A stretch of 4,254 bases of DNA from the IMG/VR virus record IMGVR_UViG_2537561712_000020; one strand, given 5' to 3'. The stretch is from a virus. Taxonomy: Duplodnaviria; Heunggongvirae; Uroviricota; Caudoviricetes. The notes under the pieces were generated by a model. The model saw only the letters and a program-made list of their open reading frames with translations. It ran no database searches and was not told the origin of the DNA. Made by a program: the position numbers and the translations under genes. Shown here piece after piece: positions 2,868-4,254 of this stretch (positions are counted from its first letter, which is position 1; every line of letters begins with the position of its first letter).

Positions 2868-3275
2868 ATGAAAAACGAAACCTTCGGTGCTCGCCTCTTA
2901 TACAGGCGAAAAAAATTAAAACTGTCTCAGGCCGCATTAGGTAAGCTGGTCAAAGTGGCTCACGTAACAATTTCTCAATGGGAAAGAGATGAAACACAGC
3001 CAGCGGGGAAGAGATTATTCGCACTGAGCCAGGCGCTTCAGTGCTCGCCGACTTGGCTTCTTTTTGGAGATGAAGATAAGCAACCAGGCGAACCGATCCC
3101 AGATAATCAGCCAGTCAATCTGACAGAAGATCAAAAAGAGTTGCTTCAACTGTTCGACGCACTGCCTGAGTCAGAGCAAAAGGCTCTGTTGTCAGAGATG
3201 CGTGCTCGAGTTGAGAATTTCAACAAACTTTTTGAAGAACTACTCAAAGCTCGCAAAAGAAGCGCAAATAAATAA
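2868..3275 (+). CDS. dicA: DicA-like HTH (XRE-family) repressor; CI analogue with no S24 peptidase domain
   Basis: 135 aa. HTH segment LSQAALGKLVKVAHVTISQWERDE. Segments LFALSQALQCSPTWLLFGDEDKQP and ALPESEQKALLSEMRARVENFNKLFEELLKARKR match E. coli DicA as I remember it, including the 135-aa length. No Shine-Dalgarno sequence upstream of the ATG. Confidence 0.88.
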   Translation: MKNETFGARLLYRRKKLKLSQAALGKLVKVAHVTISQWERDETQPAGKRLFALSQALQCSPTWLLFGDEDKQPGEPIPDNQPVNLTEDQKELLQLFDALPESEQKALLSEMRARVENFNKLFEELLKARKRSANK

Positions 3276-3373
3276 CCCCCCTTTTTTTCGCAACTCTCTG
3301 TAATAAAAAGCACAAACTTTCAAATACTTGTGTTTTTTACATCAAGAAGCTTAGGTTTTTCTACACAAAAAGC

Positions 3374-3403
3374 TTGACCATAACTCTTAGGCTATTCTAA
3401 ATT
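3374..3403 (+). promoter_or_regulatory. Candidate rightward early promoter with embedded operator-like palindrome O3 (3386-3401)
   Basis: -35 TTGACC (3374-3379), 18-bp spacer, -10 TAAATT (3398-3403). O3 is CTTAG-GCTATT-CTAAA, the third copy of the TTAG-N6-CTAA core, sitting between the -35 and -10. Confidence 0.4.
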
Positions 3404-3616
3404 CTACTCATCAAGACACCGCACGGTGTTCTCAGCAAACAGTTCCGCTACCCGGCGTTAAGGGGAAGCAGAGGATTTCTCAGTGGGCGAGTCAAACATC
3501 AGAATGGAAGGCGTCCAGGGATCAGCAAAGAAACAGCGATGGCGCTTTATATTGATATCAGCGCCATTGCCGGACAGGTAAGAGTTATCAGAGCGGTAAC
3601 TAAGCGGTATGCGCCT

Positions 3617-3817
3617 TTACTTCAGAAAGTCTCTGGTGAGTGCACCGAAGATATTGTCAACGATTTCGTCATCGAACTGCGAGGACTCATCTTCAGTTAC
3701 AAGGTGACCACAATTTTTGCAGATGGCTCCCGCGAAACTGTCAGAGCCCTGCGGCTTAAAGGATGTGTCAAAGACTTCGCCACCACATTCTGGGCAAGAA
3801 AACTTGATTGTATTCAT
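3617..3817 (-). CDS. Small zinc-ribbon protein (CxxC-N21-CxxC) with acidic C-terminal tail; function unknown
   Basis: 66 aa from ATG 3817-3815: MNTIKFSCPECGGEVFDTSFKPQGSDSFAGAICKNCGHLVTEDESSQFDDEIVDNIFGALTRDFLK. GAGAGGAAA lies 8 nt upstream of this ATG; the TTG at 3823 used by the ORF track is too close to the SD. Codon usage is ordinary. The overlapping plus-strand 99-aa ORF (3539..3838) has no SD and 7 of its 8 Arg codons are AGA/CGG/CGA, so I treat that one as the antisense shadow. Confidence 0.6.
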   Translation of the reverse strand: MNTIKFSCPECGGEVFDTSFKPQGSDSFAGAICKNCGHLVTEDESSQFDDEIVDNIFGALTRDFLK

Positions 3818-3909
3818 AACCAATTTCCTCTCGAGTAACAGACCCCTCAGAGGATACCACCTCGCCTGACGTGGTTAAAAGCAGGCAACGCTAACCACAA
3901 GGAGCCGAC

Positions 3910-4128
3910 ATGCAGAAACGAGACCCCGTCATCATCGCGCCAGACTATACCGATGATGAACTTTATGAGTGGATGCACCAGAAAATTAATGCAGCGCAGG
4001 ATCTGAAATGGGCCAATGAAGCCAGGGCTAAGCAGGCTGAAAATCTGTCCGCTCTGGAGCAGGATATCACCAATCTGGAAAAAGCAGCGGCATTAAGCAT
4101 TGCCAGAATGATTACATACCCGCGTTAA
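3910..4128 (+). CDS. ydfC: YdfC-like small protein (Qin-prophage type), function unknown
   Basis: 72 aa, MQKRDPVIIAPDYTDDELYEWMHQKINAAQDLKWANEARAKQAENLSALEQDITNLEKAAALSIARMITYPR. AGGAG at 3900-3904 lies 5 nt before the ATG. Length and position downstream of dicA match K-12 ydfC. Symbol assigned from memory and synteny; treat as provisional. Confidence 0.7.
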   Translation: MQKRDPVIIAPDYTDDELYEWMHQKINAAQDLKWANEARAKQAENLSALEQDITNLEKAAALSIARMITYPR

Positions 4129-4254
4129 TAGCTAACCAACGAAGCTAAGGTTGGTAATTAAGGAGTTCTCCACGGGTGAGGTGGAGTGCGTGCGCCGGAC
4201 ACGGGTGAGCATACGGCACTGACAGTTTACTGAAAGGATATTTCTCTGAAAAGT

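Follow-up and report, generated by a model that had tools for sequence, protein, structure and literature searches.

A zinc-ribbon gene nested antisense in a conserved partner reading frame: a candidate mobile two-strand coding cassette of phages and prophages

The gene pair at the locus

The stretch of DNA considered here, called the window in the following (IMG/VR virus record IMGVR_UViG_2537561712_000020, 4254 bp), represents the immunity and early region of an E. coli prophage of the lambdoid, Qin/DicA type. In its early-left part, a small zinc-ribbon gene on the minus strand lies wholly inside a longer open reading frame (ORF) of the plus strand, which we call the partner ORF (Table 1). 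Taken alone, the zinc-ribbon gene is a routine member of a catalogued family, and the point of interest is the arrangement, in which both strands appear to code and the pair appears to travel as a unit.

A previous inspection of the window, here called the sequence-only reading, had proposed a 66-amino-acid (aa) minus-strand ORF with two CxxC pairs 21 residues apart and a strong Shine-Dalgarno sequence (SD) at ideal spacing, and all of these are present as described, the cysteines being C8-x2-C11 and C33-x2-C36 and the SD lying 8 nt before the ATG. The product passes the NCBIfam model NF047912 ('ECs_2282 family putative zinc-binding protein', ECs_2282_CxxC) with 57.3 bits against a cutoff of 37 (E = 1e-15, profile positions 1-56 of 60), as do 35 of 35 relatives, and newer RefSeq records annotate the gene on this strand (WP_001092153.1). 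Homologues at 60-70% identity occur in Citrobacter, Klebsiella and Enterobacter, and an exhaustive profile search found 66 cluster representatives at E<1e-3, mostly 64-68 aa long and typically aligned over 40-65 of the 66 profile positions. C8, C11, C33 and C36 are invariant in a 35-member alignment as well as in 26 codon-aligned loci, with relatives reaching down to ~25-30% identity, and G30 is nearly invariant in the former. The gene call is right, since the NF047912 model is passed and the cysteines are invariant; their conservation in homologues was the point on which the sequence-only reading had itself staked the gene. As judged by its homologues, the zinc-ribbon ORF is thus a genuine and widely conserved phage gene, whose family has already been catalogued without a function.

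The consensus of the 35 members is CPxCG...DFxGAxCxxCGHxxTxDDI, followed by a helix. In most distant members this C-terminal helix has a basic end, and it is acidic in the window's clade only. The acidic tail noted previously does exist as a stretch of residues 42-57, but GALTRDFLK follows it, so that it is not the extreme C-terminus, and it is specific to that clade. An (A)AGGA/GGAG-type SD stands ahead of the start codon in most lineages, SD and ATG both being conserved.

The protein is a four-cysteine ribbon with one C-terminal helix, most likely a small nucleic-acid- or protein-binding module and not an enzyme. Pfam zinc-ribbon families (DUF5795, Zn_Ribbon_TF, Zn_ribbon_3 and others) remained below gathering, the best being DUF5795 with 23.4 bits vs 27, a sequence profile search of the PDB returned generic zinc-ribbon and helix noise only, and an AlphaFold2 (AF2) model computed with no metal was poor (predicted local distance difference test, pLDDT, 54.6). 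The candidate defence protein PDC-M14A of PADLOC (PDLC04447) was matched weakly and over the zinc-ribbon part, with E = 0.002 for the window protein and 2e-7 for a distant member; distant members align with the N-terminal positions 19-81 of the 152 in the model. For the Lar/RalR model TIGR03655, the window protein reached 15.7 bits vs a cutoff of 39.6 (E = 0.014). YdaE, the other zinc-binding protein of the Rac prophage, was considered and is unrelated. In the literature we found no paper on ECs_2282, the WP accessions or NF047912; a scan of GTDB representative genomes for the family gave two spurious matches only, and single-protein pattern scans were nearly empty.

Three GC-rich metagenome contigs (L189, L209 and L223) contain 63-aa ORFs of the form CPxCG...GAICHYCGHFLD, which fit the DNA pattern of the census described below and are devoid of the TxDD motif. 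In L209 and L223 no antisense ORF extends past the stop, and in L189 the antisense frame is open for several hundred codons in GC-rich DNA. These ORFs may represent a related family of ribbons that has no partner gene, or they may be unrelated.

The partner ORF belongs to no Pfam or NCBIfam family and found nothing in PADLOC-DB; distant partner proteins match phrog_29546 over most of their length. Older RefSeq and all GenBank phage records examined annotate this plus-strand ORF instead of the zinc-ribbon gene, and no database record examined annotates both. Its AF2 model (pLDDT 69; predicted template modelling score, pTM, 0.50) has the order helix-helix-helix-hairpin-helix, and fold searches with this model matched no known fold. 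In six diverged loci, the conserved DNA runs ~85 nt past the zinc-ribbon stop and ends at the start codon of the partner ORF, where strong SDs are found in several diverged loci, e.g. caggagaggaaATG, ataggaggttttATG and tgaggaggccgtgATG. The N-terminal segment outside the overlap carries a motif with the variants LRVDASAV, IIIDTSII, FRLDTAFL, LNVDASEV and LSIDTSRI. Similarity of the N-termini is significant out to 45% zinc-ribbon identity (z = 3.5-8.7), and a profile-profile comparison restricted to these segments (hhalign) places the motif in register between clades (P = 0.002).

Constraint on the two frames

The two ORFs overlap in the antisense frame that pairs second codon positions with each other and first with third positions. 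Open shadows of a single real gene are common in this frame, for which reason we tested each frame separately. Within the overlap, the ratio of non-synonymous to synonymous substitution rates (dN/dS) is 0.18-0.35 in the zinc-ribbon frame vs 0.29-0.79 in the plus frame. In 14 of 15 pairs, the zinc-ribbon frame has the lower value, and in these pairs its amino-acid identity is also the higher one. Pro9 of the zinc ribbon remains constant while the plus frame switches between Trp and Arg. Given the lower dN/dS and the retained proline, the zinc-ribbon gene is therefore not a shadow.

For the partner ORF, we considered the N-terminal segment that the zinc-ribbon gene does not reach. Here the plus frame shows a dN/dS of 0.25, the lowest of the six frames, with changes mostly at third positions, and pN/pS in two further independent, distant clades is 0.22 (L137/L140) and 0.27 (L125/L160), vs ~1-2.5 in shifted frames. 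Inside the overlap, constraint from both frames meets in one nonamer. The zinc-ribbon gene uses GCC for Ala31 in 21 of 23 cases, xTC for Ile/Val32 in 22 of 23 and TGC for Cys33 in 22 of 26. When 14 representatives of deep lineages are compared, no other of the 63 columns varies as little as the degenerate third positions of codons 31 and 32 (0.39 bits vs a mean of 1.45), whereas in other conserved zinc-ribbon codons (P9, G12, G30) the third position is free to vary. At the one nonamer base that does vary, the change is silent in the plus frame (GAT/GAC, Asp) and makes a conservative Ile/Val replacement in the zinc ribbon. On the codon alignments, the frozen synonymous sites at zinc-ribbon codons 31-33 preserve the 'ADG' triplet of the plus frame, at which the AF2 model of the partner protein places the turn of its single beta-hairpin.

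Each frame shows purifying selection of its own, the zinc ribbon in its invariant Cys and Pro residues and lower dN/dS, the plus frame in the constraint on the non-overlapping part and in the frozen sites. By these comparisons, the partner ORF also appears to behave like a conserved gene under purifying selection, and both strands appear to code.

How far does the open partner frame extend among relatives? TTA, CTA and TCA codons, which make a stop on the other strand, are found in neither frame across the overlap; an analytic calculation puts the chance of this under a one-gene null at 0.03-0.29 per lineage. Both ORFs are intact in ten closer lineages. We further took a census of viral and metagenomic contigs using a degenerate DNA pattern for CPxCG-17-GAxCxxCGH, that is, for the zinc-ribbon signature only, which also took in loci of distant family members and sequenced phages and from which unrelated radical-SAM-type C-terminal ribbons were excluded. 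The same-triplet antisense frame stays open in almost all true family members, including lineages from Pectobacterium, Burkholderia-type phages, the Klebsiella phages KP12 and 2b, coliphage HK639 and several uncultured ones; the other two antisense frames nearly always contain stops, 1-11 per gene. The partner ORF begins 22-36 codons beyond the zinc-ribbon stop, usually at an ATG with an SD, and ends at or within ~7 codons of the zinc-ribbon start in most lineages, running further in a few GC-rich loci.

Codon usage was tried as a discriminator between the strands and set aside as uninformative. The sequence-only reading had remarked that the plus-strand ORF is rich in rare Arg codons, and seven of its eight Arg codons are indeed rare, but the ORF does not appear to be a dispensable shadow, being under purifying selection outside the overlap. 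The rare codons do not discriminate because five of them lie in the overlap and are constrained by the zinc-ribbon frame, and because the overall codon fit of both ORFs is similar.

Operon context, mobility and candidate promoter

The window is 99% identical to O157:H7 chromosomes, and 'PPompW' prophages are close. Its minus strand further carries P-like and O/DnaT-like replication genes, a YdaT-like gene and a P22-Cro/DicC-like gene. The pL-like promoter is bracketed by two operator-like palindromes (Table 1), of which three further CTTAG-N6-CTAAG-like copies lie between dicC and dicA (2801-2867) and a sixth, weaker match inside the partner ORF (3589-3604); the window thus has six such sites vs 1.4 expected, a number reached by 0 of 200 shuffles. 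The palindromes at 2801-2867 and 3350-3403 are probably the DicA operators OR and OL, the latter with the pL of a dicB-type early-left operon. The gene pair lies downstream of this pL/OL-like site as the first cistron of the operon. This supports the proposal that the zinc-ribbon gene runs antisense to the early-left transcript, with a plus-strand promoter whose palindromes match those between dicC and dicA.

Table 1. Features of the window discussed in the text (positions on the 4254-bp window)
Feature	Position	Strand	Remarks
Zinc-ribbon gene, 66 aa, ATG start, MNTIKFSCPECGGEVFDTSFKPQGSDSFAGAICKNCGHLVTEDESSQFDDEIVDNIFGALTRDFLK	3617..3817	-	NF047912 match; CPECG...CKNCGH and C-terminal helix
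Shine-Dalgarno of zinc-ribbon gene, GAGAGGA	3826..3832	-	8 nt before ATG; read from sequence
Partner ORF, 99 aa	3539..3838	+	phrog_21318; WP_001240336.1 in older RefSeq; whole zinc-ribbon gene inside, on opposite strand
Non-overlapping N-terminus of partner ORF, 25-26 codons	3539..3616	+	Motif hydrophobic-x-hydrophobic-[DN]-[TA]-S-x-hydrophobic-x-x-Q
Doubly constrained nonamer, GCA GAT GGC	3719..3727	both	Plus A61-D62-G63 (hairpin turn); minus A31-I32-C33
Candidate own promoter of zinc-ribbon gene, TTAACC (3873-3878), 16 nt, TGgTATCCT (3851-3859), extended -10	3851..3878	-	Conserved in related loci
DicA-type repressor	2868..3275	+	NF007257 DicA, 241.6 bits
pL-like early-left (dicB-operon) promoter, sigma-70-like, TTGACC-18-TAAATT	3374-3403	+	Promoter scan
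Two operator-like palindromes, CTTAG-N6-CTAAG-like	3350-3365, 3386-3401		Bracketing the pL-like promoter
ydfC, next early-left operon gene after the cassette	3910..4128	+	So named in matching records; phrog_1744

An Rfam scan of the window returned nothing at E<=1; the window therefore contains no dicF, nor does the region hold a known RNA. We considered and rejected a put-like antiterminator RNA for the pL leader, as its fold does not surpass that of shuffles (z = 0.27) and there is no convincing likeness to the putL-like RNA of HK639. A search of the window for LexA boxes found a sole perfect CTGT-N8-ACAG (CTGTTTTTATTAACAG) at 1711-1726, inside the O/DnaT-like gene and far from the gene pair; one such site is expected by chance. 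Downstream of ydfC, O157:H7 chromosomes (L001 4351-5110 vs window 4129-4254) have ~635 bp extra before the match to the last 125 bases of the window; two ORFs annotated as hypothetical lie in it, one of 408 nt on the plus strand and one of 234 nt on the minus strand.

Is the two-strand arrangement bound to the early-left operon? In the loci examined, the two ORFs always occur together and in the same geometry, as a cassette of ~0.4 kb, the long ORF invariably pointing in the direction of the host operon and the zinc-ribbon gene in the opposite one, in five operon contexts. The cassette is the first gene after pL in the window, in L088-L093 and in HK639, where HK639_45 directly follows the annotated putL-like RNA; it stands after cro in the pR operon (L086/L087 and Burkholderia L104/L105), within a baseplate operon (L103), after the tape-measure gene of Klebsiella phage 2b, and after Rha/KilA in KP12. 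S24-type cleavable repressors adjoin it in some relatives, and it is present in >900 complete E. coli genomes, O157:H7 among them. As these positions indicate, the cassette has changed places among operons of the early-left, early-right, tail and baseplate type. The sequence-only reading had suggested the zinc-ribbon gene as the insert, but the mobile unit is the two-strand cassette and not this gene by itself.

In coliphage HK639 (L231 2941-3404), the reading frame of the partner homologue HK639_45 (115 aa) begins within the 3'-terminal part of the annotated putL-like antiterminator RNA, and it encloses, on its opposite strand, an unannotated zinc-ribbon ORF of 73 aa with a good SD.

The position of the zinc-ribbon gene had also been likened to that of rexAB. 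The cassette, however, lies beyond pL/OL, and the homologue of HK639 follows pL and a putL-like RNA. In L097-L099, toxin-antitoxin pairs fill the space between repressor and pL and the cassette comes ~280 bp further on; the rexAB analogy is therefore wrong. The repressor-to-pL space is the true slot for accessory genes in these phages, its occupants in L097 (2031-2509), L099 (3228-3705) and L098 (3057-3721) being PaaA2/ParE on the same strand, or HigB with a helix-turn-helix antitoxin on the opposite strand.

A promoter for the zinc-ribbon gene itself had been suggested on the minus strand. The site is present and is kept in related loci as TT(A/C)ACC-16-TGgTATC(C/T)T, and in all lineages examined, GC-rich ones included, a -10-like hexamer lies 19-40 nt (mostly ~30) before the zinc-ribbon start codon; the boxes of the GC-rich phages read TAGAAT, GAGAAT, CAGAAT and TAGACT. 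The site falls under the threshold of our consensus scan. After the -10-like box follow a GTTCTCACAC-like motif and then the SD. An own promoter for the zinc-ribbon gene is thus plausible from the pattern of conservation.

The GTTCTCACAC(A)A-like motif between the -10-like box and the SD (window 3836-3850; equivalents in L088, L091, L092, L103, L106 and L198) hardly differs between a Pectobacterium locus and enterobacterial ones that share only ~29% identity with it in the zinc-ribbon protein; in the clade of the window, a diverged GTCTGTTAC stands in its place. A conserved hairpin before the zinc-ribbon SD (CTTGG/CCAAG, CTGG/CCAG, compensatory by eye) was considered and rejected, as RNAalifold found no consensus structure in 14 sequences.

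A 37-bp promoter-like segment (window 3851-3887) is 100% identical in many sampled E. coli genomes that have no cassette. In the one cassette-less locus examined (L094), it lies ~35 nt upstream of another unannotated minus-strand ORF (2146-2466), which encodes a hydrophobic protein of 106 aa with no Pfam match. The segment could be a portable leftward promoter with swappable cargo.

Interpretation, alternatives and known systems

On balance, we lean towards reading this DNA as an ancient mobile dual-coding cassette for a ~65-aa zinc ribbon and a ~95-aa alpha/beta protein, of which one would be a product of the lysogenic state and the other of the lytic state, and which would have been kept as a pair across Enterobacterales, Burkholderia-type and uncultured phages, in fixed orientation and in early as well as late operons. 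It is likewise somewhat more probable than its opposite, on the comparative data, that the cassette expresses the zinc ribbon from its own promoter while the lytic operons are silent and the partner when they fire. The long ORF would have no promoter of its own and would be expressed only with the surrounding lytic operon, in the window as the first cistron of the DicA-repressed pL/dicB operon. The zinc-ribbon gene would be driven by a weak extended -10 promoter just past the stop codon of the long ORF, and with such a promoter its protein would be made when the lytic operons are silent, i.e. in the lysogen. Upon induction, strong convergent transcription over the zinc-ribbon promoter, together with a fully complementary mRNA, would shut the zinc-ribbon gene off, such that the two products would be expressed in a mutually exclusive manner. 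We speculate that both proteins might share a target or act on one another, one as a factor of the lysogen state and the other as its lytic-state counter-factor, and that encoding on the same DNA may make the two inseparable by recombination.

Several points weigh against this reading. The evidence for both ORFs is comparative throughout, and lysogen-specific expression and a functional link between the two proteins are what we infer from it. Inside the overlap, the plus ORF reaches a dN/dS of only 0.29-0.79; lineages are not independent, so that products of the per-lineage probabilities overstate significance; and long shadow ORFs are expected in GC-rich members anyway. The partner ORF of L207 stops early, opposite zinc-ribbon codon 11, the partner SD is weak in the window's own clade, and similarity to the most distant partner N-termini is weak in pairwise comparison, the P = 0.002 coming from the profile comparison. 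The AF2 model of the partner is moderate (pLDDT 69) and matches no known fold, that of the zinc ribbon is poor (pLDDT 54.6), and current RefSeq annotation retains the zinc-ribbon gene only. Finally, the candidate promoter scores 8 of 12 hexamer positions, where the consensus scan requires 9 of 12.

These points are sharpest in the alternative that only the zinc-ribbon gene is real and the plus ORF its shadow, which is the current view of RefSeq, the newer Prokaryotic Genome Annotation Pipeline (PGAP) having dropped the plus ORF. It would account for the lower dN/dS of the zinc-ribbon frame and for the want of a Pfam or NCBIfam family or a fold match for the plus ORF, and since stops in this frame arise only from TTA, CTA and TCA, open shadows are frequent, especially in GC-rich members. 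Four observations, however, cannot be explained by a shadow: in three clades the 22-36 codons that lie clear of the overlap are under purifying selection; the conserved DNA stops precisely at a conserved start codon, which usually has an SD; the four-fold sites of zinc-ribbon codons 31-32 are frozen; and the ORF runs with the host operon in five contexts. We hold this explanation to be unlikely, if a serious one. The reverse case, in which the plus ORF alone is real, is hardly credible. Although older PGAP and GenBank phage records (HK639_45, KP12_367) annotate only this ORF, and its direction and spacing suit the operon, the cysteines stand in classic CPxCG and CxxCGH knuckles that are invariant down to ~25-30% identity, radical Trp/Arg swaps of the plus frame keep Pro9 of the zinc ribbon, zinc-ribbon dN/dS is lower in 14 of 15 pairs, the curated NF047912 model is passed, and the gene has its own conserved SD and ATG with an upstream -10-like box in all lineages examined.

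Two further alternatives concern what the zinc-ribbon protein does. In the sequence-only reading it is an independent, lysogen-expressed gene in a rexAB-type slot, acting as antirepressor, nucleic-acid mimic or superinfection-exclusion factor. An antirepressor would make sense beside DicA-type repressors, which have no cleavage domain; the gene stands against the early-left operon with a plausible promoter of its own, like sieB in Rac, and the PDC-M14A match (E = 2e-7 for a distant member, 0.002 for the window protein), if weak, is to a candidate defence protein. Yet the gene lies beyond pL/OL and not between repressor and pL, and its cassette is also found in tail and baseplate operons and beside S24-type cleavable repressors, which does not fit a repressor-specific antirepressor. 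No LexA box is near it, family, PHROG and PADLOC searches of the window proteins gave no antirepressor family match and no defence family beyond the weak hit above, and the acidic tail is clade-restricted; the proposed roles thus find no backing, and this alternative is improbable. The other would make the zinc ribbon a distant Lar/RalR-type protein (restriction alleviation or DNase toxin) that the antisense transcript of the operon restrains, as in type I toxin-antitoxin systems. In 10 of 35 family members TIGR03655 is matched below its threshold (best E = 3e-6), hhalign aligns the zinc-ribbon core with K-12 RalR at E = 2e-4, and RalR itself is under antisense small RNA (sRNA) control (PMC4041452). 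This we judge distinctly improbable, given that the window protein stays at 15.7 bits vs a cutoff of 39.6, that the hhalign probability is 44% over 30 columns of generic knuckles only, that RalR has neither GAxCxxCGHxxTxDD nor the C-terminal helix, and that one would hardly expect a lethal toxin from a gene whose expression is predicted for lysogens.

How does the cassette compare with known systems? The window protein is a member of the NF047912 family with the four cysteines conserved, and the annotation of that family is silent on the fact that every member examined here lies inside a conserved ORF of the opposite strand. RalR, a restriction alleviation/DNase toxin of Rac controlled by the antisense sRNA RalA (PMC4041452), resembles it as a small prophage zinc ribbon of ~64 aa with weak profile similarity over two knuckles and antisense RNA in its control. 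It differs by the sub-cutoff score, the absence of a common motif past the knuckles and another genomic arrangement: RalA is non-coding and overlaps ralR by 16 nt, whereas the antisense partner in the window would be a full protein-coding gene. The sieB gene of Rac is likewise an opposite-strand gene inside the early-left region, presumably with its own promoter, but SieB is a membrane protein, unrelated in sequence, whose gene occupies its own intergenic space and is not nested.

Temperate phages use convergent promoters and antisense transcripts as switches, e.g. pR/pL interference in coliphage 186, OOP/cII in lambda and sar/ant in P22. As in these, a weak candidate promoter here faces a strong lytic one, and lytic transcription would silence the opposing transcript. 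In the phage 186, lambda and P22 cases the opposing transcripts overlap partially or are non-coding, whereas here each would encode a conserved protein, the interference itself being predicted from the layout.

The closest likeness in geometry is to the antisense overlapping gene pairs that have been reported in E. coli O157:H7 and Pseudomonas (PMC9927249, PMC8850804, bioRxiv 10.1101/2020.11.18.388249), in which two opposite-strand coding ORFs share the same DNA and the embedded gene has its own promoter and SD. The papers on enterohaemorrhagic E. coli concern other loci, and we found none on this one. Those pairs have expression data, whereas the present pair is known from sequence comparison; unlike them, it co-occurs in Enterobacterales, Burkholderia-type and metagenomic phages at ~25-30% protein identity and moves as a cassette. 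Long antisense overlaps in bacteria are contested, largely because the published examples that we found are reported to be taxonomically restricted or evolutionarily novel and stand on expression data alone. The cassette offers the opposite kind of evidence, namely that both frames are deeply conserved, that selection on the one can be told apart from selection on the other, and that the pair has repeatedly moved horizontally as one unit. If the dual-coding reading is true, this would be a much more deeply conserved antisense coding pair than the bacterial and phage examples we found, and, as far as we searched, such a conserved, mobile, two-strand coding arrangement appears to be undescribed. 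It would also suggest a design principle, a lysogen/lytic expression switch made from one piece of DNA, and it exposes an annotation problem, in that pipelines flip between the strands and never keep both. The pair resides in an easily manipulated, DicA-controlled prophage of E. coli O157:H7, and single-base changes can affect either protein by itself (plus 3721 A>T turns zinc-ribbon Cys33 into Ser and leaves Ala61 of the plus frame as it is; plus 3722 G>A turns Asp62 of the plus frame into Asn and leaves zinc-ribbon Ile32 as it is), which makes dual coding directly testable.

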